A stretch of DNA of 64,000 nt, taken from contig NZ_JASJAP010000001.1 of NCBI RefSeq assembly GCF_030066995.1, positions 539,230-603,229 of the forward strand, in the 5' to 3' direction. Source of the DNA: Erythrobacter sp. (GTDB lineage: Bacteria; Pseudomonadota; Alphaproteobacteria; Sphingomonadales; Sphingomonadaceae). The notes beneath the pieces are model-generated. The model had not been told where the DNA came from. It saw nothing but the letters and a program-made list of their open reading frames with translations, and ran no database searches. This document shows, piece after piece, positions 18,041 to 50,446 of this stretch. The first letter of the stretch is position 1, and each line of letters begins with the position of its first letter. Both the position numbers and the translations under genes were made by a program.

Positions 18041-19360
18041 ATGCCTATGGCCGATCCGGCCGATCCGAAACCCGCTGGAGACAACCGTCCAGCCCTGGCG
18101 TTGCACGTGCCCGAGCCCAAGTTCCGGCCCGGCGACACGGCCGATTTTTCAGATATTGATATCGGTCAGGCGGGGGCGCAGCCGCGCCCGGACGAGGCAA
18201 CCAAGCCCGAAGACATGAAAGACCTCGCCTATGGCCTCGTGCGCGTGCTGGGAGAGGACAACAAGGCGCACGGGCCCTGGGATCCCAAGCTTGATCCCGA
18301 CACCTTGCGCACCATGCTTGGCCATATGGCCATGGTCCGCGCCTTCGATGAACGCATGTTTCGCGGTCAGCGCCAGGGCAAGACCAGCTTCTACATGAAG
18401 TGCACCGGTGAAGAGGCCACCAGCGTCGCGGCGTCCATGGCGCTCGCCAGCGACGACATGGTCTTTCCCAGCTATCGCCAGCAAGGCATTCTCATTGCGC
18501 GCGGCTACCCGATGATCGAGATGATCAACCAGATCTACTCGAACAAGGGCGACAAGCTGAAAGGCCGCCAGTTGCCGATCATGTATTCAAGCCGCGAGCA
18601 CAGCTTCTTCACGATCTCGGGCAACCTTGCCACGCAAACCCCGCAAGCGGTGGGCTGGGCGATGGCGAGCGCGATCAAGGGCGACAGCCGGATCGCGGCC
18701 ACCTGGGTCGGCGAGGGCTCGACCGCGGAAGGCGACTTCCACTCCGCTTGCACGTTTGCGGCGGTCTACAACGCCCCGGTCATTCTCAACGTGATCAACA
18801 ACCAATGGGCGATTTCAAGCTTTTCGGGCTTCGCCGGCGCGGAACGCACGACCTTTGCCGCGCGCGCACTCGGCTATGGCCTGGCCGGCCTCCGCGTGGA
18901 CGGGAACGACGCGCTCGCCTGCTACGCGGCGCAAGCCTGGGCGGCCAATCGCGCCCGCGCCAACGCCGGACCGACTCTGATCGAATTCTTCACCTACCGC
19001 GCCGAAGGGCACTCCACCTCGGACGACCCAAGCGGCTACCGCAGCGCGCAGGAACGCGAGGAATGGCCGCTGGGCGATCCGGTGAAACGCTTGAAGGACC
19101 ATCTCATCGCGATCGGCGAGTGGGACGAGGACCGCCAGGCCGCGATGGACAAGGAATGCGCCGAGTATGTGAAGGCCACCACCAAGGAGGCTGAGAAGAA
19201 CGGCATTCTGGGCCATGGCCTGCATCATCCCTTCCACACCATGTTCGAAGACGTGTTCGAAGAGCTGCCATGGCATCTTGAAGAGCAGGCCGAACAGGCC
19301 ACGCGAGAGCGCAAGATCAAGTGGCCGGACAGACACCCGAAGGACTTTGCGGGACAATGA
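18041..19360 (+). CDS. bkdA1: branched-chain alpha-keto acid dehydrogenase E1 alpha subunit (TPP-dependent)
   Basis: Long E1alpha with TPP-binding region GEGSTAEGDFH...YNAP. Its ATGA stop/start overlaps E1beta. Confidence 0.8.
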   Translation: MPMADPADPKPAGDNRPALALHVPEPKFRPGDTADFSDIDIGQAGAQPRPDEATKPEDMKDLAYGLVRVLGEDNKAHGPWDPKLDPDTLRTMLGHMAMVRAFDERMFRGQRQGKTSFYMKCTGEEATSVAASMALASDDMVFPSYRQQGILIARGYPMIEMINQIYSNKGDKLKGRQLPIMYSSREHSFFTISGNLATQTPQAVGWAMASAIKGDSRIAATWVGEGSTAEGDFHSACTFAAVYNAPVILNVINNQWAISSFSGFAGAERTTFAARALGYGLAGLRVDGNDALACYAAQAWAANRARANAGPTLIEFFTYRAEGHSTSDDPSGYRSAQEREEWPLGDPVKRLKDHLIAIGEWDEDRQAAMDKECAEYVKATTKEAEKNGILGHGLHHPFHTMFEDVFEELPWHLEEQAEQATRERKIKWPDRHPKDFAGQ

Positions 19361-20421
19361 GCGCGCAGACAGACATAGCCTCACCGCAGGGCGAGAGCCA
19401 CGCAGAGGAGCGGCGCCTCAACATGATCGAGGCGATCAACGAGGCCCTTGATGTCATGTTGGAGCGTGACGAGGACGTCATCGTCATGGGTGAGGATGTC
19501 GGCTATTTCGGCGGCGTTTTCCGTTGCACGGCGGGCCTCCAGGAAAAGCACGGCAAGACCCGCGTGTTTGATACCCCGATCAGCGAATGCGGCATTATCG
19601 GCGTTGCGGTGGGGATGGGCGCTTACGGGCTGCGCCCGGTGCCCGAAATCCAGTTTGCCGACTATATCTATCCGGGGCTCGACCAGCTGATTTCCGAGGC
19701 CGCGCGCCTGCGCTATCGCTCGGCCACCGAGTATATTGCGCCGCTCACGGTCCGCTCGCCTTTTGGCGGCGGGATTTTCGGTGGGCAGACGCACTCGCAG
19801 AGCCCGGAAAGCCTCTTCACGCATGTCTCGGGGCTCAAGACGGTGATCCCGGCGACGCCTTATGATGCCAAGGGGCTGCTTATCAGCTGCATCGAAGACA
19901 ACGACCCGGTCATCTTCTTTGAGCCCAAGCGGATCTATAACGGCCCGTTTTCGGGCTTTTATGACAAGCCGGTCGAGCCGTGGAAGAAGCACAAGGACAG
20001 CGCGGTGCCCGAGGGGTATTACACTATCCCGCTGGGCAAGGCGCGCCATGTGACCGAGGGTGAGCAGGTGACGATGTTGGCGTATGGCACCATGGTTCAC
20101 GTTGCCGAGGCGGTTTGCCGCGACAAGGGCGTGGAGGCCGATATTCTCGATCTGCGCACGCTGGTCCCGCTCGACATCGAGGCGATCGAAGCTTCGGTCA
20201 AGAAGACCGGTAGGTGCCTGATCGTTCACGAAGCCACGCGCACCAGCGGCTTTGGTGCGGAGCTTTCCGCGTTGGTGACCGAACGGTGCTTTTACCACCT
20301 CGAAGCCCCGGTCGAACGTGTCACTGGCTTCGACACCCCGTATCCGCACAGCCTTGAGTGGGCCTATTTCCCCGGCCCTGTCCGCATCGGCGAGGCGCTG
20401 GACAAGATTCTTCAGGACTGA
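19356..20421 (+). CDS. bkdA2: branched-chain alpha-keto acid dehydrogenase E1 beta subunit
   Basis: Motifs GEDVGYFGGVFRCT and transketolase-C-like C-terminus. ATG at 19356 overlaps the E1alpha stop. Confidence 0.85.
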
Positions 20422-20589
20422 AGCGCAAGCCTCTTTCCTACTCACCGCGGCGACTGACACAGTGATATTTGATGCAATGTCAAACGCAGTGGCCGAGCAA
20501 ACAAGAGGGACAAGAAGGTTGTGCACGCGCGGTGTAACCTTCGCATTTTCTATGGAATTGTGCGTGAAATGAGTGGCTTATAGGGTGAA

Positions 20590-20627
20590 TTTAAAAGTGA
20601 CAGGGTGTAACCTTTGTCACCTTTAAA
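20590..20627. promoter_or_regulatory. AT-rich imperfect palindrome tttaaaAGTGACAgggtgtaaccttTGTCACCTttaaa
   Basis: Inverted repeats GTGACA/TGTCAC are flanked by TTTAAA on both sides. The element lies within the unusual 260-bp gap between the E1beta and E2 genes. Confidence 0.35.
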
Positions 20628-20681
20628 CCCACCTTGATTGTGAAGATCGGGCTCATCACGCATCAAAGGATGTCAGACGGT

Positions 20682-22019
20682 ATGGCAAAATTCACTTTCA
20701 ACATGCCCGATGTGGGCGAAGGCGTGGCCGAGGCGGAGATCGTCGAATGGCACGTGAAGGTCGGCGACACGGTCGAAGAGGACCAGCATCTGGTCGATGT
20801 CATGACCGACAAGGCGACGATCGATATTGAGAGCCCGGTAGCGGGCACGGTGCGCGAGGTGGCGGGCGAGTTGGGTGACACGATTGCCGTGGGCGCAATG
20901 CTGCTGGTGATCGAGGTCGAAGGCGAAGTCGATGCCGAGGTTGAGCAGGACGACGCTGCACCGACCGAGGAAACCGAGACTGAACCGGCGGCAGAGCCAG
21001 CGATTGAGACCGATCCTGCACCAATCGCTGAGGCCGAGAAGCCCCTTGGCTCAGGGCAAGGGGTCGTGCAAGGCGTTGGGGAAGGGGCCTCGGCGCCCGC
21101 ACCCGTGCAAACCCACCCTCCGGCCCCCTCTCGAGCGGAAGGGGGAGAGAAAGTCCTCGCGAGCCCCGCCGTGCGCAAGCGCGCGAAGGACCTGGGCGTT
21201 GATCTTTCGCAGGTGAAACCGGCCGAGGATGGCCGGGTGCGCCACGGCGATCTCGATCAATTCCTTGCTTACAATTCCGCCGGTGGCTTCAGCCCCGCTG
21301 GCACCGCCCGCGCCGATGAAACGATAAAGGTCATCGGCCTTCGCAAGCGCATTGCGCAGAACATGAGCGCGTCAAAGCGCCATATTCCGCACTTCACCTA
21401 TGTCGAGGAATGCGACGTCACCGAGCTGGAACGCATGCGCGCAGACCTTAACGCCAATCGCGGCCAGAAGCCCAAGCTTACCATGTTGCCGCTGCTGATC
21501 ACCGCGATCTGCAAGAAGCTGCCCGAGTTTCCGATGATCAACGCGCGCTACGACGATGAAGCGCAGGTCATCACCCGGTTTGGCTCGGTGCATCTGGGCA
21601 TGGCGACGCAGACGGATAACGGCCTGATCGTGCCTGTCATCCGCGATGCGCAAAGCCGCAATCTGTGGCAGCTCGCCAGCGAGATCGGACGCCTGGCTTC
21701 GGCGGCGCGCGATGGGTCGGCCAAGTCGGACGAGCTGTCGGGCTCCACGCTGACGGTAACCTCGTTGGGGCCGCTGGGCGGCGTGGCAACGACCCCGGTG
21801 ATCAACCGTCCCGAGGTCGCGATCATTGGCCCGAACCGCATCGTCGAGCGTCCCATGTTCGTCACCGGCGCTGACGGCACAGAGCGCGTCGAGAAGCGCA
21901 AGCTGATGAACATATCGATTTCTTGCGACCACCGCGTGGTGGATGGCTACGACGCGGCGAGCTTTGTTCAGGAACTCAAGAAGCTGATCGAAACACCGGT
22001 CTTGCTGCTTTCGGAATAG
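20682..22019 (+). CDS. bkdB: dihydrolipoamide acyltransferase (E2) of 2-oxoacid dehydrogenase complex
   Basis: Lipoyl domain (DVMTDKATIDIESP), an Ala/Pro/Glu-rich linker, and catalytic domain DHRVVDG. The start is at MAKFTF. Confidence 0.85.
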   Translation: MAKFTFNMPDVGEGVAEAEIVEWHVKVGDTVEEDQHLVDVMTDKATIDIESPVAGTVREVAGELGDTIAVGAMLLVIEVEGEVDAEVEQDDAAPTEETETEPAAEPAIETDPAPIAEAEKPLGSGQGVVQGVGEGASAPAPVQTHPPAPSRAEGGEKVLASPAVRKRAKDLGVDLSQVKPAEDGRVRHGDLDQFLAYNSAGGFSPAGTARADETIKVIGLRKRIAQNMSASKRHIPHFTYVEECDVTELERMRADLNANRGQKPKLTMLPLLITAICKKLPEFPMINARYDDEAQVITRFGSVHLGMATQTDNGLIVPVIRDAQSRNLWQLASEIGRLASAARDGSAKSDELSGSTLTVTSLGPLGGVATTPVINRPEVAIIGPNRIVERPMFVTGADGTERVEKRKLMNISISCDHRVVDGYDAASFVQELKKLIETPVLLLSE

Positions 22020-41313: not shown

Positions 41314-41377
41314 CACGGCACAAACCCTCTTGCCATTCGCCGGGGCCTCGGGGATTAACGCGCTCGAGCGACAGTTT

Positions 41378-43177
41378 ATGGTTTCAATGCCTTCCTATCA
41401 CGCAATCGCCGCGATGGCTGTGACGGTTGCCATGTTCGTCGCCTTTGCGCGCGGGCGCTTGTCCGTCGAAATTGTCAGCCTGTTGACCATCGCGGTAATC
41501 GCGGTTGGTCTGTACTTTTTTCCACTTGAGGGAGGCAAGCCAAGCGACGGGCTGGCGCTCGCCTTCGGGGGGTTTGGGCACTACGCGCTGATCACCATTT
41601 GCGCGCTGATGATTATGGGGCGAGGGCTGGTGGTAACCGGCGCGCTTGAGCCGGCCGCCCGGCTGCTTGAAGGCATCTTCAAGGTCAATTTGCAGCTAGG
41701 CCTTCTGGTCTCGCTGCTCATCGCCTTCTTCCTCTCGATGGCGGTCAATGACACGCCGGTTCTGGTGCTGCTCCTGCCGATTTTTGTCGCACTTGCGGCA
41801 AAGGGCGCAATGCCCGCCTCCAAAACGCTTATCCCATTAAACGCTGCGGTGCTGATCGGCGGGATGGCGACGACGATCGGTACCTCGACCAACATTCTTG
41901 TGACCTCGATCGCGGTCGATCTTGGCGAACCACAGATGAGTGTTTTCCACTATTCGCCCATCGTTCTGATCGCCGCTTTGGTGGCGCTGCCTTACCTTTG
42001 GCTCGTCATGCCACGTCTGCTTGATGACAACAGCGTTGAGGCGGATGCGGCGCGACGGCAGTTCCACACGAGGCTGCGAGTGGGCAGCGACAGTTTGTTG
42101 ACCGGCAAAGAACTGGAAGCGGTGCGCGACAAGCTGCCCTCCAGCATCACCTTTCATTCTCCGCCCATGGGGGCGTTGCAGCCCCAGCAGCGCTTGCACA
42201 TCTCCGGGACCCACGAAGCGCTCGAAGACGCGACGCGCGTGCTAAGGGGAGAACTCGCGCCAAGCTGGGTGCTCGATCGCATTCGGCGCACCGCGTCGGC
42301 AAATTCCGAAGATATCATGGTCGTTGAGATGACGGTCACGGCGGATTCGCGCCTCATCACCCGCACGCTTCCCAGCTCCGGCATTGCCGATCTTTATGGC
42401 GTAGCGGTGCTTGGCATCCATCGGCCCGAACGGCTGTTGGGTGAGCGCGATCAGTACTCGGAAGGCGGCGATCTCAGGATTGCGGAGGGCGATGTTCTTC
42501 TTGTGATGGGGCTTGTCGACGATCTTCAAGCCTTTTCGCGCAACGACAGCCTCTTGATGCTTGAAGGCGCGCGCGAGCTTCCACGCCGATCGAAGGCGGT
42601 GCTGTCGGCCGCAATTATGTTCGGCAGCGTATTCATGGCATCGATCGGCTGGCTGCCGATCGCGATCAGCGCGCTGGCGGGCGCGATCCTGATGTTTGTG
42701 ACCGGCTGCGTGAAGTTTGATCGAGTGGGCCGCGCTCTGTCGGGCAAGGTCATCGTCTTGGTCGCCGCCAGCATCGCCATCGGGCGCATCATACTTGAAA
42801 GCGGAGCGGCCGCTTGGCTGGGGCAGGTGCTATCGCTGGGACTCGGATTCCTGCCCCCCGCTCTGGTGCTCGCCGCCATCATGACGTTTGTAACCTTGCT
42901 CACAAACTTTGCGTCCAACGCCACGGCCGCAACGGTCGGCACGCCGATCGCCTTCAACATCGCGACACAACTTGACTTACCACCCGAGCCGCTGATCCTG
43001 GCCGTGCTTTTTGGGTGCAACCTGTGTTACGCAACGCCAATTGCCTACCAGACCAATATGCTGATCATGGCTGAGGGCTCTTACGAGTTTAAGGATTACA
43101 TCCGTACCGGTGTGCCCTTGGTCGCGTTGATGGTGACGGTCCTCTCGATCCTGCTGGTGCTATTCTACGGTCTTTGA
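41378..43177 (+). CDS. DASS/SLC13-family anion:Na+ symporter with central TrkA-C (RCK_C) domains
   Basis: Two membrane halves with re-entrant loop motifs and a cytoplasmic double TrkA_C insert. The start is taken at MVSMPSYH. Confidence 0.75.
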   Translation: MVSMPSYHAIAAMAVTVAMFVAFARGRLSVEIVSLLTIAVIAVGLYFFPLEGGKPSDGLALAFGGFGHYALITICALMIMGRGLVVTGALEPAARLLEGIFKVNLQLGLLVSLLIAFFLSMAVNDTPVLVLLLPIFVALAAKGAMPASKTLIPLNAAVLIGGMATTIGTSTNILVTSIAVDLGEPQMSVFHYSPIVLIAALVALPYLWLVMPRLLDDNSVEADAARRQFHTRLRVGSDSLLTGKELEAVRDKLPSSITFHSPPMGALQPQQRLHISGTHEALEDATRVLRGELAPSWVLDRIRRTASANSEDIMVVEMTVTADSRLITRTLPSSGIADLYGVAVLGIHRPERLLGERDQYSEGGDLRIAEGDVLLVMGLVDDLQAFSRNDSLLMLEGARELPRRSKAVLSAAIMFGSVFMASIGWLPIAISALAGAILMFVTGCVKFDRVGRALSGKVIVLVAASIAIGRIILESGAAAWLGQVLSLGLGFLPPALVLAAIMTFVTLLTNFASNATAATVGTPIAFNIATQLDLPPEPLILAVLFGCNLCYATPIAYQTNMLIMAEGSYEFKDYIRTGVPLVALMVTVLSILLVLFYGL

Positions 43178-43325: not shown

Positions 43326-43523
43326 TTAGGGCGCCGGGACGTAAGTGCCCAGACGATGGTGCAGCGCGTTGATTTTAGCCAGCTCTTCGCGGTCTTCGGT
43401 GGTTCGCGCGTGGCTTTCGAGCGCGCGGCGCAGCAGTTTCATATCCGCTGTTGAGAGCAAGGCGCGCGCGCGCCCTGGTTCAGCGCGCTTTGGTTCGGAA
43501 TTCGGTGTGTCGGTGTCGCTCAT
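43326..43523 (-). CDS. hypothetical small protein (about 65 aa)
   Basis: ORF from MSDTDTPNSEPKRAEP... immediately downstream of aceA on the same strand. There is no family assignment. Confidence 0.3.
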   Translation of the reverse strand: MSDTDTPNSEPKRAEPGRARALLSTADMKLLRRALESHARTTEDREELAKINALHHRLGTYVPAP

Positions 43524-43640: not shown

Positions 43641-45240
43641 CTAAGCGGCGGCGAACTGATTCATGGTGTTGTCCTTGCCGCCCGCCTTGAGCGCGGCTTC
43701 ACCGGCGAAGTACTCTTTGTGATCATCGCCGATATCGCTGCCGGCCATGTTCTGGTGCTTCACGCAGGCGATGCCTTGGCGGATTTCCTCGCGCTGTACG
43801 TTGAGCACGTAGCCGAGCATGGCTTCCTCACCGAAGTAGCGCTTGGCGAGGTTGTCGGTGCTGAGCGCCGCGGTGTGATAGGTGGGCAAGGTAATAAGGT
43901 GATGGAAGATTCCGGCGCGCGCGCTCGCGTCCCTCTGGAAAGTGCGGATCTTCTCGTCCGCTTCGGCCGCAAGCTCGGTGTCGTCATAGTCCACGCTCAT
44001 GAGCTTGGTGCGGTCATAAACTGAGACGTCCTTTCCGGCCTCATCCCAGGCATCATAGACTTGTTGGCGGAAGTTAAGCGTCCAGTTGAAGCTGGGTGAA
44101 TTGTTGTAGACGAGTTTGGCGTTCGGGATCGTCTCGCGCACCTTGTCGACCATTTCAGCTATCTGTTCGACATGCGGCTTCTCGGTTTCGATCCATAGCA
44201 GGTCGGCGCCGTTCTGGAGCGAAGTTACGCAGTCGAGTACCACGCGATCCATACCCGTTCCCGGACGGAACTGGTAAAGGTTAGATGGCAGACGCTTGGG
44301 TTCAAGCAGCTTGCCATCGCGGCTGATGTATACCTGACCATTCTTGATGTTGGCCGGATCGACCTCTTCGGCGTCGATAAAGCTGTTGTACTGATCACCC
44401 AGATCCCCCGGCTCGGTGGAATAGGCGATCTGTTTGGTGAGTCCCGCGCCAAGCGAGTCGGTGCGCGCGACAATCACGCCGTCGTCCACGCCAAGCTCAA
44501 GGAACGCGTGACGGCAGGCGCGAATCTTTTGAATGAAATCTTCGTGCGGAACGGTCACCTTGCCGTCCTGGTGACCACACTGCTTCTCGTCTGAGACCTG
44601 ATTTTCGATCTGCAGAGCGCATGCGCCCGCTTCAATCATCTTCTTGGCGAGCAGATAGGTGGCTTCCGCGTTGCCGAACCCGGCGTCAATATCGGCGATA
44701 ATTGGGACAACGTGGGTTTCATAATTGTCGATCTGATTGGTAAGGTCTTGCGCCTTCACTTCGTCGCCCGCATCCCGCGCCGCGTCGAGATCGCGGAACA
44801 TCAGGCCCAATTCGCGGGCGTCGGCTTGCTTCAAGAACGTGTAGAGTTCTTCGATCAGAGCAGGAACGCTGGTCTTTTCATGCATTGACTGGTCGGGAAG
44901 GGGGCCGAATTCGCTGCGAAGAGCGGCGACCATCCAGCCGGAAAGGTAGAGGTAGCGCTTCTTGGTCGAACCGAAGTGCTTCTTGATGCTGATCATCTTT
45001 TGTTGGCCGATGAAACCGTGCCAGCATCCCAATGACTGCGTGTAGGCGGCGGGATCAGCGTCGTAAGCGTCCATATCCGCGCGCATGACTTTCGCGGTGT
45101 ACTTGGCGATATCGAGACCGGTCTTGAAACGGTTCTGCAGAACCATACGCGCCGCGCCTTCGGCATCTATGGCGGACCAGCCGGCGCCGTTGGCCTCGAC
45201 AAGGCTGCGCATCTGGTTGATTGTGTCTGTGTATGTCATG
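43641..45240 (-). CDS. aceA: isocitrate lyase (long, about 530-aa form)
   Basis: Contains the KKCGHQDGK catalytic motif (seen as EKQCGHQDGKV). The start is taken at MTYTDTINQ. Confidence 0.9.
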
Positions 45241-45378
45241 CTTGAGTTCTCCTGAGCTTTTGATCGGGGTGTGTTCCCGAGGGGGAGGGGATGCTTGACC
45301 CATGCGATATTGCAGTGCGTCATAACAGGAAAATATCCATACAATCGTGTCTCTATCAGCGATTCTGGGCTAGTGACT

Positions 45379-45406
45379 TGTGTAAATATGTAAAGTAATT
45401 TACACA
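45379..45406. promoter_or_regulatory. AT-rich inverted repeat TGTGTAAAT-N10-ATTTACACA
   Basis: Perfect 9-bp arms, 8 nt upstream of the regulator ATG, within the aceA/regulator divergent intergenic region. Confidence 0.45.
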
Positions 45407-45413
45407 GCTGCGC

Positions 45414-46751
45414 ATGGCTGAATCCGCCCTTCTCGCCGGGCCCTCTTTGCGCCGACTGCGCAAACGCGAAGGGCTGACGCAGGCCGCAATGGCTGCCTCT
45501 CTCGGTATTTCACCCAGCTATCTCAATCTGATCGAGCGCAATCAGCGTCCCTTGTCCGCGCGCGTGCTGGTCCAAGTGATCGAGCGCTTCGACTTCGATC
45601 CCAGTTCTTTACGCGAAGACGAGGCCATTGGCGGAGTCGATGGTCTGGCCAGGCGCATGGCGGATAAGCGTTTTGCCGACTTAGCCATTGATCGCGAAGA
45701 ACTGCAGGAGTTCCTCGCTGCCGCGCCGCAGGCCGCCGCTGCCTTTGCCCGGCTGTACGACAATTCGGGATCCCAGATGCCGCTTGATGAAGACCCCGCT
45801 GGCGACGCGCGCCGGGCGGTGGAGCGCTGGCAGAACCATTTCGCCGATCTGGATCACACCTGCGAAGATTTGTCCGACGAATTGCGATTGTCGCGATCGG
45901 ATGTCAGCGCGGCGCTGAATGAGCGTTTGCGTGAACGCCATCAGCTTCAGGTCCGCATTCTGCCCGCAGAGGTCATGCCCGGCATTGTCCACCGGCTTGA
46001 TCTGCACAACCGTCAATTACAGCTTTCCGAGATGCTTCCCGGTGCCGCGCGGCGCTTTCAGATTGCCCGGCAGGTCGCGAGTCTCGAGCTGCGCGAGGCC
46101 ATCACCCAGCAAATTGAAGGGGCGGGCCTCGCCAACGCCGAAGCGCGCGAGCTTTTTCGCGATCATGTTACCGATTATTGCGCGGGGGCTATCCAGATGC
46201 CCTATCGCCGATTCCTGCGCGCTTGTGAGCAGACGGGATACGATCTGGCCGTTCTTCAGCGCCGATTTGCTTCCAGCTTTGATCAGGTCGCGCAGCGCCT
46301 CACAACACTACAGCGCGTGGGAGAACGCGGCTTGCCCTTCTTCAGCGCGCGTTTTGGACGCACGGGTCGCATGGTTGGATTCACCGCAGGGGCAAGCGGG
46401 GCCATTTACCCAATCGAAGGCGCGCGCTGGCCCGCCTGGGTTCCCTATGCCGCGTTTGAAAGCCGTGGTTCCATGCTCACTCAAACGGTGACGTTCGGCG
46501 AGGGTGAGGCGGCTCCGCGCCATTGGTTCACGATCGCGCGTACGGTGGAGGTGGACGGAGTGGCGTGTTCCGCGCGAAAAGCGATTGTACTCGGCATCGA
46601 GGCGCGCTTTGCGACCGAGCTTGCGCAGGCGCGCGGTGTCTCGCTTGATCCAGCGGACGCAACACCGCTTGGAACGCCGTGCCCGCGCTGCGGGCGCACC
46701 GATTGTCTGATGCCGGCGAGCGCGCGTCTGGCGACCGGTCCACAACCGTAG
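45414..46751 (+). CDS. XRE-family HTH regulator with ImmA/IrrE-like and DUF2083 domains (RamB/ScfR-like glyoxylate-shunt regulator)
   Basis: N-terminal HTH (LRRLRKREGLTQAAMAASLGISPSYLNLIERNQRP) and a long C-terminal domain. It is divergent from aceA, as ramB homologues are. Confidence 0.75.
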   Translation: MAESALLAGPSLRRLRKREGLTQAAMAASLGISPSYLNLIERNQRPLSARVLVQVIERFDFDPSSLREDEAIGGVDGLARRMADKRFADLAIDREELQEFLAAAPQAAAAFARLYDNSGSQMPLDEDPAGDARRAVERWQNHFADLDHTCEDLSDELRLSRSDVSAALNERLRERHQLQVRILPAEVMPGIVHRLDLHNRQLQLSEMLPGAARRFQIARQVASLELREAITQQIEGAGLANAEARELFRDHVTDYCAGAIQMPYRRFLRACEQTGYDLAVLQRRFASSFDQVAQRLTTLQRVGERGLPFFSARFGRTGRMVGFTAGASGAIYPIEGARWPAWVPYAAFESRGSMLTQTVTFGEGEAAPRHWFTIARTVEVDGVACSARKAIVLGIEARFATELAQARGVSLDPADATPLGTPCPRCGRTDCLMPASARLATGPQP

Positions 46752-46919: not shown

Positions 46920-48305
46920 ATGATCCGCCTGTTCAAGCACTATATCCCGCACGCCGTGCTGTTGCTCGGCCTGCTCGATTTGGCGCTGTTGGTGGTGGCC
47001 AGCGAACTCGCCTGGCAACTGCGCGCGGCGCAAATCGGTATGGATCCCGGCCCGCTCTCTGAACGCTGGATACCGCTAATCGGCTCAGCGCTGGTGGTGT
47101 GGCTTGCGATGATATCGGTTGGCGTTTACGGCCCGCTGGCCTTGCGCTCCTTGCGTTTTGCTGGGGCCCGCCTGCTGGTGGCGATCAGCCTCGGTATCAT
47201 CGCGCTTGCCTTCGTTGATTTTGTGCTGCCCGGCCAGACCTTCTGGCGCTCCACTCTTCTCTATGCGATGGCTTTCGCCGCGCTTGTTCTTGTGGCTGAT
47301 CGCTTGTTGCTAAACAGCGTGATTGGGTCGTCAGCCTTTCGCCGCCGCGTGCTGGTGCTGGGCGCAGGTGACCGGGCGCAGCGTCTTCGAGCGTTGGGCG
47401 ACCGGCCCGAGAGTGGGTTTGCCATCGTCTCTTACATTGCCATGAGCGAGCCTGAACGCGTGGTTGAAGAAGCTATCGCGCGCGACGCGATCCACGATCT
47501 TGGCCGTTTCGTTGAGAATCTTGGCGTGAGCGAGGTGGTCCTTGCCCTACAGGAGCGGCGCAACGCTCTCCCCCTGAAGGACCTGCTGCGCATCAAGACC
47601 AAGGGCGTGCACGTCAACGATTTCTCCAGCTTCCTCGAGCGCGAGACGGGCCGCGTCGACCTCGACACGGTCAATCCCAGTTGGCTGATCTTTTCGGATG
47701 GCTTTTCGAGCGGGCGGATGCTTTCAAGCGCCATCAAGCGAGTGTTTGACATTGCTGCCAGCGTCGTTCTGCTGACGCTGAGCGCGCCGGTCATTGCGCT
47801 TTTTGCTTTGCTCGTAAAGTTCGACAGCGAAGGTCCGGCGTTCTTCCGCCAGCAACGCGTGGGGTTGTACGGAGAGACATTCCATCTCGTAAAATTGCGC
47901 AGCATGCAGGCCGATGCTGAAAAAGATGGCGCGCAATGGGCCAGCGAAGACGATCCGCGCATCACTCGCATAGGACGTTTCATTCGCACACTTCGCATCG
48001 ACGAATTGCCGCAAACCTGGTGCGTTCTGATGGGACAGATGAGCTTTGTTGGCCCGCGTCCGGAAGTCCCCAAATTCGTTGATGACCTGCAGGAGGAGAT
48101 ACCCTTCTATGGCGAGCGTCACATGGTCAAACCGGGGATTACGGGCTGGGCCCAGATCAACTTTCCCTATGGCGCCTCGATTGAAGACAGCCGCAAGAAG
48201 CTCGAATACGATCTTTACTACGCCAAGAATTACACCCCGTTTCTCGACTTCGTAATCCTGTTGCAGACGGTGCGAGTCATCCTTTGGCCGGAAGGGGCGC
48301 GGTGA
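46920..48305 (+). CDS. exopolysaccharide polyprenyl glycosylphosphotransferase (EPS priming sugar transferase, WbaP/TIGR03025-like)
   Basis: N-terminal TM segments, and a C-terminal bacterial sugar transferase domain (FRQQRVG...LVKLRSM, DELPQ, GPRPE). Confidence 0.85.
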   Translation: MIRLFKHYIPHAVLLLGLLDLALLVVASELAWQLRAAQIGMDPGPLSERWIPLIGSALVVWLAMISVGVYGPLALRSLRFAGARLLVAISLGIIALAFVDFVLPGQTFWRSTLLYAMAFAALVLVADRLLLNSVIGSSAFRRRVLVLGAGDRAQRLRALGDRPESGFAIVSYIAMSEPERVVEEAIARDAIHDLGRFVENLGVSEVVLALQERRNALPLKDLLRIKTKGVHVNDFSSFLERETGRVDLDTVNPSWLIFSDGFSSGRMLSSAIKRVFDIAASVVLLTLSAPVIALFALLVKFDSEGPAFFRQQRVGLYGETFHLVKLRSMQADAEKDGAQWASEDDPRITRIGRFIRTLRIDELPQTWCVLMGQMSFVGPRPEVPKFVDDLQEEIPFYGERHMVKPGITGWAQINFPYGASIEDSRKKLEYDLYYAKNYTPFLDFVILLQTVRVILWPEGAR

Positions 48306-50446
48306 TGAGTGCGTTCTCGATCCTTGATCCCAGTCTTAGCGATTTTGCGACCTTCGTTTCCTACTTTTCGGGTGCTGTTCTGAGCGTTGGCGCAGGGCTC
48401 TGGATCGCGCGCTATGGTGAACGCGATCGGCCTGATCGCGTTGCATCGTTTATCGCCTGCGCATTTACGGCTGTCTGGTGCTCCCTGGCCGCTCTTCAGA
48501 ATTCGAGCGATCCCGCGACCATGCTTGCAGCGACCCTGCGCAACCTTTCTTACATTTTCCTGATTTTCAGAATGTTTGCCGCCGATGGCCGCGACGAGAG
48601 CCTGCGCCCCATTCGCCCGGTTCTGATTACGCTTGCTCTGGTGGAGCTATTCCAGCCGATCTTGCTGTTTGTCGATGGCCGAGTGGGGTTCGTGCCCCAA
48701 CTTGAAGCTTTGACCTTCGAGGTGTCGGTGATCCTTAACATGCTGGTAGCGGTGGGCGCTCTGATGCTGCTTCACAACCTCTATGCGAGCGCCGCTACGC
48801 CCGCTCGGGACGTTCTGCGGTGGGGCACCATCGGGCTAGCGTGCGTCTTTGCCTACGATCTCAACCTGTTCACCATCGCCTATCTCGATGGTGAACTCCC
48901 TTTCTTTCTCATGAGCCTTCGCGGCTTGTTTTGCGGGGTCATGGTCGGGCTTTTCGCCTTGGGCGCGAACGCTGCCAGCTCCGCCCTGCAGTTCAGGCCT
49001 AGCCGCGCGGTCACCTTCCAGACGCTCTCTCTTCTCGTGATCGGCGGCTACCTTGTGCTCATGGTGCTGGTAACCCGCTCGCTTGCGCTTCTGGGTGGTG
49101 ACATCGCTCGCGCGAGCCAAGTGGTCTTCCTGGTAATGGCCGTAGCGCTGGCGGTAATCGGGATGCCATCAAACCGAGTACGCCGATGGCTCCGGGTGAC
49201 CGCGACCAAACATCTCTTCCAGCACCGCTACGATTATCGCGAGGAATGGCTGCGCTTTACCCGCACGGTGGGTCGCGGTTCGAGCGGGAGTGCGAGCTTT
49301 CACGAACGCGCGATCAAGGCGATTGCCGACATCACCGACAGCCCGGGGGGTTTGCTGCTGATTTCGAACGAGGAGGCCCAGCTTGAGCTGACCCAGCGCT
49401 GGAACTGGCCGATGATCGAGGTTCCAGCCGCAAGGGGAGAATACGAGCTTTCGGCCCTTTTGGAGCGGCACAGCCACATTCTGGATCTTGATGAAGTGCG
49501 CGGTGGCATCGATCATCACGGTGAGCTGGACCAAGTCCCGCAATGGCTGATCGACGCGGAGGACGCCTGGGCGCTAGTGCCGCTTATTCATTTTGACAGG
49601 CTGATCGGCTGTATCGTGTTGGCGCGCCCGCGTATCACGCGCCGACTGGATTGGGAGGACTTTGACCTCTTGCGCGTCGTGGGTCAGCAGCTTGCGAGCT
49701 ATCTGGCCGAGCAGGCCGGACAACGCGCGCTAATGGATGCGAGCCGCTTCGACGAGTTCAACCGCCGGATGGCGTTCGTGATGCATGATATCAAGAACCT
49801 CGCCAGCCAACTCTCGCTGCTCGCGGCGAATGCGCAAAAGCACGCCGATAACCCGGAATTTCGTAAGGACATGCTGGTCACTCTTCAAAAGTCTTCGGAG
49901 AAGCTCAACGCGCTGCTCGCCCGCCTTGGGCGCTACGGCTCGGGGCCGGTGCAGACCATCTGTGAGGTGGATCTTTGGGCCATGGCCACGTCCCTTGAAC
50001 AGCGCTTTGCCGCGGCCCATCCTATCGCGGTAACATCAAGCGAGGGCGCGCTTGTTCTGGGGGACAAGGACGGTCTGGAACAGGCTCTCATTCACCTCGT
50101 TCAAAACGCGATTGATGCAAGTGAACCCGACGCGCCCATCCATATAACTGTCTCCAGCGATACGCTGCACGGTCGGCTTGAGATCGTCGACGCTGGATGT
50201 GGAATGTCGCCGGATTTTGTCAGCACAAGTCTATACAAGCCTTTCGTCTCGTCCAAGCAAGGCGGCTTTGGGATCGGCGCGTTCGAAGCGCGCGAGATGA
50301 TCAAGGCGATGGGCGGACGCTTGCAAGTTGAATCGCGCGAAGGCGTGGGAACGCGCTTCACTGTGTTGCTTCCTCTGCCCGAAGCCGCGCGCTTGTTCTC
50401 GCCCAAAGCCGACAGCAAGACCGAATCCTCCGAACAGGTGGCCTGA
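48305..50446 (+). CDS. prsK: PEP-CTERM system histidine kinase PrsK
   Basis: Multi-TM N-terminus, a GAF-like middle domain, an HisKA/HATPase C-terminus (HDIKN, DAGCGM). It is immediately followed by prsR. ATGA junction with the upstream gene. Confidence 0.8.
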   Translation: MSAFSILDPSLSDFATFVSYFSGAVLSVGAGLWIARYGERDRPDRVASFIACAFTAVWCSLAALQNSSDPATMLAATLRNLSYIFLIFRMFAADGRDESLRPIRPVLITLALVELFQPILLFVDGRVGFVPQLEALTFEVSVILNMLVAVGALMLLHNLYASAATPARDVLRWGTIGLACVFAYDLNLFTIAYLDGELPFFLMSLRGLFCGVMVGLFALGANAASSALQFRPSRAVTFQTLSLLVIGGYLVLMVLVTRSLALLGGDIARASQVVFLVMAVALAVIGMPSNRVRRWLRVTATKHLFQHRYDYREEWLRFTRTVGRGSSGSASFHERAIKAIADITDSPGGLLLISNEEAQLELTQRWNWPMIEVPAARGEYELSALLERHSHILDLDEVRGGIDHHGELDQVPQWLIDAEDAWALVPLIHFDRLIGCIVLARPRITRRLDWEDFDLLRVVGQQLASYLAEQAGQRALMDASRFDEFNRRMAFVMHDIKNLASQLSLLAANAQKHADNPEFRKDMLVTLQKSSEKLNALLARLGRYGSGPVQTICEVDLWAMATSLEQRFAAAHPIAVTSSEGALVLGDKDGLEQALIHLVQNAIDASEPDAPIHITVSSDTLHGRLEIVDAGCGMSPDFVSTSLYKPFVSSKQGGFGIGAFEAREMIKAMGGRLQVESREGVGTRFTVLLPLPEAARLFSPKADSKTESSEQVA

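Follow-up and report, generated by a model that had tools for sequence, protein, structure and literature searches.

The divergent aceA-ramB locus

The window analysed here is a 64,000-nt stretch of an Erythrobacter sp. contig (NZ_JASJAP010000001.1, positions 539,230 to 603,229), and the element in question is an AT-rich inverted repeat in the 174-nt intergenic region (45240-45413) between the isocitrate lyase gene aceA and a divergently oriented ramB-like regulator gene. aceA (43641-45239, minus strand) codes for a long-form isocitrate lyase of 532 aa that matches NCBIfam PRK06498 with 1057 bits, and is the presumed regulated target. The ramB-like gene (45414-46751, plus strand) codes for a 445-aa regulator with an XRE helix-turn-helix (HTH_31/HTH_3; residues 11-67), an IrrE/M78-like domain (Peptidase_M78; residues 174-297) and a C-terminal ScfR domain (ScfRs, PF09856, formerly DUF2083; residues 298-437), an order of domains that fits the definition of the ScfR (short-chain fatty acyl-CoA regulator) family. 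These NCBIfam and Pfam matches uphold the gene identities given in an initial annotation made from the sequence letters, which had named an isocitrate lyase and an XRE/DUF2083 regulator.

The closest homologues of the regulator among the 120 matches listed were members of the short-chain fatty acyl-CoA regulator family from Erythrobacter and its allies, with 77-93% identity. In an alignment of 18 orthologues the N-terminal 63 residues were almost invariant, and C385 and the motif C423-X2-C426-X4-C431 were invariant. This C-X2-C-X4-C motif aligns with the corresponding motif of Mycobacterium tuberculosis PrpR (MtPrpR, chain 6cyy_A; structure homology E=1.6e-34), where the conserved cysteines hold a [4Fe4S] cluster on which CoA binding and tetramerisation depend (PMC6765138). 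The regulator also has 39% identity over 96% of its length to the RamB orthologue of Paracoccus versutus (the orthologue of Pden_1365), and the recognition-helix regions of the two proteins are similar. It is not a class 1 RamB, because it reaches 247 bits with the NCBIfam equivalog for class 1 RamB, where the cut-off is 700. Judged from these comparisons, the adjacent regulator is a bona fide member of the ScfR family.

The inverted repeat (45379-45406, no strand assigned) has two arms, TGTGTAAAT (45379-45387) and ATTTACACA (45398-45406), which are complementary at 9/9 positions and separated by a 10-nt spacer, and it is present as the initial annotation had described it. That annotation had placed it 8 nt before the regulator start, where we measured 7 nt (45407-45413) to the ATG at 45414, and about 140 nt from the isocitrate lyase start codon (45239, minus strand), where we measured 139 nt. 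It had also called the repeat strongly AT-rich in a genome of roughly 65% GC; GC around the dyad does fall to 0.39, but the window overall has 61.6% GC.

By itself the dyad was only weakly above chance. Its exact pattern, with up to three mismatches allowed, was found once in the window and in 0/100 shuffles, a test tied to this one sequence. Perfect 9-bp inverted repeats of any sequence with spacers of 3-20 nt numbered 12 in the window against 10.0 +/- 3.5 in the shuffles, while AT-rich perfect repeats numbered 1 against 0.15, with at least one present in 13% of shuffles. Since the perfect 9-bp repeat alone is barely unusual, the significance of the site lies in its conservation across orthologous loci.

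A conserved array of half-sites beside the ramB start codon

Conservation was examined in 80 orthologous loci, taken from one genome per species of Erythrobacter, Porphyrobacter and Qipengyuania with regulators 75-93% identical, and a footprint was obtained by MAFFT alignment of the 80 aceA-ramB intergenic regions. Isocitrate lyase was divergent from the regulator in 79/80 loci and the intergenic length ranged from 148 to 182 nt. Beside the regulator gene lies a proximal array (CTTGTGTAAATATGTAAAGTAATTTACA; 45377-45404, plus strand), a predicted RamB binding site, which was ungapped in 80/80 intergenic regions. It carries three half-sites in the window, TGTAA at 45381-45385 and again at 45389-45393, both in the forward direction, followed by an inverted TTACA at 45400-45404. 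The nearly invariant, ungapped consensus of the array across the loci is TTGTGT(A/C)A-N4-GTAAA-N5-TTACA, and the unit of three half-sites within 45377-45404 can be expressed as TGTMA-N3-KGTAA-N6-TTACA.

Around 20 positions of the array were at least 93% conserved, most of them invariant. The columns conserved at 93-100% were 45378-45383 (TTGTGT), 45385 (A), 45390-45394 (GTAAA) and 45400-45404 (TTACA), and the spacer columns 45386-45389, 45395-45397 and 45405-45413 carried no more than 1.0 bit, most of them less than 0.65 bits. Conserved columns that alternate in this way with free ones, at fixed spacing, are the signature of half-sites contacted by a protein, and the invariance of the half-sites matches the near-invariant N-terminus of the regulator. 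An inverted repeat arising by chance in AT-rich intergenic DNA would agree with the generic repeats being as common in the window as in shuffles and with the 13% of shuffles that hold an AT-rich one. This explanation is scarcely credible, however, and is refuted because the core was conserved across all 80 loci while flanks and spacers vary freely.

The perfect dyad was not what was conserved. All nine pairs were complementary in the window locus only, with a median of 6/9 across the loci, the pair 45380/45405 was complementary in 5/80 loci, and the variable arm positions changed on one side without compensation. The inner pair, TGTAAA-N4-TTTACA, was complementary at 6/6 positions in 37 loci and at 5/6 in 35. 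The conserved unit, as read from the footprint, is an assembly of three TGT(A/C)A-type half-sites, two direct and one inverted, together with a distal block described below, and not a perfect 9-bp dyad. The operator candidate of the initial annotation thus survives in part: the core of the array is conserved at the orthologous region (80/80), and the perfect 9-bp dyad as the unit is not (1/80). That annotation had named a lack of conservation in relatives as a ground for giving up the candidate, and the core was kept in every one of the 80.

A perfect 9-bp stem with a 10-nt loop near a start codon could also act through its structure, whether by folding as a hairpin in the RNA of the ramB leader (5' end) or by extruding a cruciform in the DNA. 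This is very improbable, as the fold energy was no better than that of shuffled sequences (z = -0.08; 91/200 shuffles folded at least as well), there was no Rfam match at E<=1 and the pairing decays across the loci, with the half-site sequences themselves remaining invariant. A scan of 45200-45460 found no terminator-like site. A structured RNA element and an intrinsic terminator were both rejected on the fold z-score, the lack of an Rfam match, the lack of a terminator and the lack of covariation.

The array lies very close to the start of ramB. It ends 9 nt before the ramB ATG in the window and 7-10 nt before it in 77/80 loci, no Shine-Dalgarno sequence precedes this ATG in any of the loci, and the array probably overlaps the ramB promoter or 5' end. 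The invariant positions might simply belong to a ramB core promoter in which TTGTGT serves as a -35-like element and the -10 element lies in or near TTTACA, giving a leaderless or short-leader mRNA and involving no operator at all. The location of TTGTGT (45378-45383) at -36 to -31 relative to the ATG, the missing Shine-Dalgarno sequence and the tightly held distance from TTTACA to the ATG are all in keeping with this. We consider it quite unlikely, as no sigma-70 consensus pair was detected, the candidate -10 (TACACA/TACAAA) is without a conserved final T, and a core promoter would leave unexplained the invariant central GTAAA, the triple pentamer, the phased distal block and the reappearance in distant taxa of the pentamer, there proven to be a RamB box. 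An overlap of promoter and operator at ramB is, in any case, likely, and being compatible with an operator it is not a true alternative to one.

The second conserved block lies on the aceA side of the array, at 45335-45356 (plus strand), and is predicted to be a second RamB box. Its consensus is TTACAGAATTTCGTGTC(T/G)NTAT and its sequence in the window is ATCCATACAATCGTGTCTCTAT, in which 45348-45352 form a TGTCT half-site. The block is situated about 95 nt upstream of the aceA ATG. Measured start to start, the distal TGTC preceded the proximal TGTMA by 32 bp in 76/80 loci and by 33 bp in the other four, which include the window.

Relation to known ScfR operators and the predicted RamB operator

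The best point of comparison is RamB of Paracoccus denitrificans Pd1222 (Pden_1365), a class 2 RamB of the ScfR family whose gene is divergent from a glyoxylate-cycle operon (Kremer 2023, PMC10370305). On acetate this regulator acts as an activator of the operon and on succinate as a repressor, ramB itself has a very low basal expression, and the motif recognised consists of two nearly identical boxes 18 bp apart (PMC10370305). The motif came from a MEME analysis of 67 genomes and was confirmed both by reporter mutagenesis and by biolayer interferometry, the latter with a dissociation constant (KD) of 1.9 uM (PMC10370305). The view in the initial annotation that proteobacterial operators of this family are largely undefined is therefore out of date, and its description of the site as aceA-repressing covers one half of the activity established for P. 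denitrificans RamB. We read the Paracoccus boxes from the wild-type and mutant biolayer interferometry oligonucleotides in the primer table of that study (PMC10370305), not from its published MEME logo. The operator reads TGACAAACCTTACA-N18-TGACAATACTGACT, a single nucleotide separates its box 1 from the ramB ATG, and the orthologous locus of P. versutus is arranged as in P. denitrificans.

The Paracoccus operator and the element in the window have in common a TGTMA/TKACA pentamer, the bases of which were those mutated to abolish binding in Paracoccus. They also share a class 2 RamB-like regulator gene divergent from glyoxylate-shunt genes, a proximal block beside the ramB start codon and an arrangement of two blocks in a 32-bp register (14 + 18 bp in Paracoccus; 33 bp in the window itself). 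The layout within the blocks differs. The 14-bp boxes of Paracoccus each repeat the half-site once in direct orientation at a 9-bp period (TGACAA-N3-TKACN), whereas the proximal array of Erythrobacter has a direct period of 8 bp followed 11 bp on by an inverted half-site, and its distal block is laid out in yet another way. A search for a Paracoccus-type box (WGTMA-N4-YGTMA) found none in the aceA-ramB intergenic region, and its sole match in the window was at 20606. The target is aceA alone in the window and aceB-icl in Paracoccus. The aceA-ramB site is best described as a putative RamB operator of variant architecture, and as such it is a new example, with variant half-site geometry, of a kind of site that was experimentally defined in Paracoccus in 2023.

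The pentamer was followed across ScfR subfamilies with the aid of a tblastn search of plasmids and chromids, which yielded 223 near-full-length regulator homologues. Nine distant glyoxylate-linked homologues among these (33-50% identity) were examined and all lay beside aceA or aceB-icl. Ten intergenic regions linked to isocitrate lyase or aceB were compared, from the window, Sphingomonas, Sphingobium, Azospirillum, Aminobacter, P. versutus, Limimaricola, Cereibacter, Rhodovulum and Thioclava. Their total of 45 pentamers compares with about 6 predicted by composition, and most of the 45 were clustered toward the regulator. These pentamer-rich regions span Sphingomonadales, Rhodospirillales, Hyphomicrobiales and Rhodobacterales, and that of Aminobacter contains TGTCA-N3-TGTAA-N4-TTACA, the same forward-forward-inverted layout as in the window. 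No pentamers were found in two control regions, one linked to prpC (Diaphorobacter) and one to acyl-CoA carboxylase (pcc; Mesorhizobium), which instead carry repeats of the TTTGCGAA/TTTGCAAA type (TTTGC(A/G)AA-type), the motif known for PrpR, class 1 RamB and PccR (PMC6765138).

These comparisons also bear on whether the array might be bound by another transcription factor, such as a global carbon regulator, in place of the adjacent RamB. The tie between site and RamB is one of sequence comparison, and the intergenic region contains further conserved blocks, among them a PhaR-like palindrome (45307-45323), so more than one factor probably acts here. Another factor is nevertheless an unlikely owner of the array, given that the pentamer tracks the regulator subtype, being enriched beside ScfR genes linked to isocitrate lyase or aceB in four orders and absent beside the prpC- and pcc-linked paralogues, and that it is the element mutated to abolish binding of P. 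denitrificans RamB. The spacing expected of CRP (TGTGA-N6-TCACA) does not fit either, as TGTGT and TTACA are 16 nt apart here. CRP/FNR-, GntR- and LysR-type readings of the dyad were rejected on spacing.

RamB of Corynebacterium glutamicum, which is negatively autoregulated (PMC4448153), is likewise an ScfR-family regulator of acetate and glyoxylate metabolism, acting through 13-bp motifs at aceA, aceB, pta-ack and ramB, but it belongs to class 1 and has a different DNA motif. M. tuberculosis PrpR, the structural homologue introduced above, is tetrameric, binds CoA and acts on paired repeats in a divergent intergenic region; the TTTGCAAA/TTTGCgAA palindromes of M. tuberculosis PrpR and RamB at prpR-prpD and icl1 were not found in the intergenic region of the window. 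ScfR proteins of the PccR/MccR type, associated with propionyl-CoA carboxylase or methylcitrate genes, share the protein family and the divergent arrangement, and their intergenic regions have TTTGCGAA/TTTGCAAA-type repeats and no TGTMA pentamers. An operator of the class 1 RamB, PrpR or PccR kind, built of TTTGC(A/G)AA palindromes or 13-bp AACTTTGCAAA-type motifs, was ruled out as TTTGC[AG]AA and TT[CT]GCAAA did not occur in 45240-45416.

Taken with the conservation, this makes it probable that the dyad belongs to, and is what shows most readily of, a composite operator of the adjacent RamB-type ScfR regulator, presumably of class 2. Such an operator would consist of the proximal triplet (half-sites at 45381 and 45389 and the inverted one at 45400) and, some three turns of the helix farther upstream, the distal block (45335-45356). 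If P. denitrificans RamB is a guide, the regulator would occupy both blocks as an oligomer, either a tetramer or dimers, and the blocks would be presented on the same face of the helix because 32-33 bp amounts to about three turns. Each subunit would join DNA binding by its XRE helix-turn-helix to the sensing of short-chain acyl-CoA by its Fe-S-containing C-terminal module. Occupancy of the proximal array at a start codon that has no Shine-Dalgarno sequence would limit ramB transcription and so give negative autoregulation; interference with the ramB promoter or 5' end is expected because the array ends only 9 nt before the ATG. The distal block faces the aceA promoter region and may mediate ligand-dependent repression, activation or both of isocitrate lyase. 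If the Paracoccus analogy holds, repression would be exerted by the apo tetramer and activation by the form that carries acyl-CoA. RamB binding is proven in Paracoccus; for the aceA-ramB region of Erythrobacter we infer it from the sequence, along with the stoichiometry, the regulatory sign, the ligand and the autoregulation.

Several observations weigh against this interpretation. The half-site geometry differs from that of the Paracoccus boxes, and the stoichiometry is for that reason not transferable. The distal and proximal blocks are not nearly identical to each other, unlike the two Paracoccus boxes, and the distal block of the window is without the TTACA half-site present in most relatives. 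No second copy of the composite site was found with a 28-nt position weight matrix in the 64-kb window or in the 80 loci of about 7 kb each; the cognate site scored 53 bits and the next independent match in the window scored -3.9. Within this sequence, then, there was no sign of the recurrence at other glyoxylate or propionate genes that the initial annotation had made a test of its candidate. A simple sigma-70 consensus scan of 45200-45460 returned no promoter, and it is an assumption that the array overlaps the ramB promoter, as is the placing of the blocks with respect to the aceA promoter.

Erythrobacteraceae are abundant marine aerobic anoxygenic phototrophs and heterotrophs, and the analysis offers a precise operator model for the control of their glyoxylate shunt, with about 20 conserved positions, fixed spacing and a second, phased block. 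The model would add a second half-site geometry to that of the one proteobacterial RamB operator characterised by experiment and helps to separate what the XRE domain of class 2 RamB reads (TGT[A/C]A) from the way in which the half-sites are arranged. It could be used in the prediction of regulons and in the engineering of acetate-inducible promoters, and it reveals no new regulatory principle.

Further elements of the intergenic region and of the window

A third conserved block lies between the distal box and aceA (45303-45333, no strand assigned). It contains a palindrome (ATATTGCAGTGCGTCAT), a TRACA half-site (45323-45327) and ACAGGAAAA, and we infer that it is probably the aceA core promoter, the site of a second regulator or both. 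The TGC-N3-GCA palindrome ATATTGCAGTGCGTCAT (45307-45323) fits the consensus W2N2YGCRNYGCRN2W2 of Sinorhizobium meliloti PhaR/AniA (bioRxiv 10.1101/2025.02.17.638283), and in 72/80 intergenic regions its YGCRNYGCR core kept a constant distance of 69-70 bp from the proximal half-site, on the upstream side. Across the window the W2N2YGCRNYGCRN2W2 pattern showed no excess (2 matches against 2.65 by chance), and because the count is not above chance the PhaR reading of 45307-45323 draws on positional conservation alone. This conservation suggests that a PhaR-type regulator may also act on aceA.

This aceA-side block reads GCGTCATAACAGG at 45321-45333 in the window, and the consensus across relatives contains GCAGCATGACA. 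The same 11-mer occurs near aceB in P. versutus (locus L082, 4860-4905) on the strand read toward aceB, with TGTCATGCTGC as its reverse complement, and it is there part of TAATGTCA units that recur 20-45 nt ahead of the aceB start. Blocks of the GCAGCATGACA type may represent additional RamB half-sites near the target promoter or a site for a shared second factor.

The 5' leader of aceA (45249-45293, minus strand) contains a conserved C-rich CCTCCCC (GGGGAGG on the plus strand, within 45282-45293), which lies upstream of the aceA Shine-Dalgarno sequence AGGAGA in most of the 80 loci. The gap between the two was usually about 7-20 nt and was longer, owing to an extra segment, in the window and in loci L005, L008 and L015. 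In the window this segment is predicted to form a hairpin of its own, and the fold of the aceA leader had a z-score of -1.58. CCTCCCC could pair with the Shine-Dalgarno sequence; both partners are invariant, hence they give no measure of covariation. Just downstream of aceA on the same strand is a small open reading frame of about 65 aa (43326-43523, minus strand, start MSDTDTPNSEPKR), which was conserved in 74/80 loci with a median identity of 81% and was without a match in Pfam or NCBIfam. Its product may be a partner of isocitrate lyase made from the same transcript.

Clusters of at least three pentamers within 32 bp occurred twice in the 64 kb, against 0.06 expected, and one of the two is the aceA-ramB array. 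The other (20598-20619) lies in a 260-nt gap (20422-20681) within a 2-oxoacid dehydrogenase operon, between the E1-beta (19321-20421) and E2 (20682-22019) genes. By its sequence matches the operon is pyruvate dehydrogenase-like, with scores below the equivalog cut-offs, and probably codes for a branched-chain keto-acid dehydrogenase. The gap contains GTGACAGGGTGTAACCTTTGTCAC, which on the minus strand reads TGACAAAGGTTACA and is identical at 12/14 positions to P. denitrificans RamB box 1, and a partial repeat, GGTGTAACCTT, is located at 20531-20541. In a metagenome scan with the E2 gene, E1-beta and E2 abutted in 78/81 relatives and an insert was found in 3/81 (the window, L087 and L094), with the boxes TGTMAMCTTYGTCA conserved in all three. 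The insert may be a candidate site for an ScfR-type regulator or an internal promoter.

A broader proposal, which we put forward tentatively and regard as rather doubtful, is that Erythrobacteraceae, and apparently Aminobacter, have a distinct RamB architecture, that the aceA region integrates RamB with a PhaR-like box and that the ScfR regulon reaches branched-chain acyl-CoA metabolism. If this were true, the forward-forward-inverted triplet with its phased distal block would mean that class 2 RamB oligomers engage DNA in at least two geometries, and the Paracoccus-type boxes between E1-beta and E2 would extend the ScfR regulon to branched-chain acyl-CoA metabolism.

The ramB-aceA pair is not part of a larger acetate or propionate cluster here, because the genes downstream of ramB are XrtA/PEP-CTERM exopolysaccharide genes. 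Directly 3' of ramB (46920-50446) are genes for an XrtA/PEP-CTERM-system glycosyltransferase (EpsB_2 family) and a PrsK histidine kinase. On the other side, a CitMHS/DASS-type transporter with a TrkA_C domain is coded at 41330-43177, convergent to aceA.

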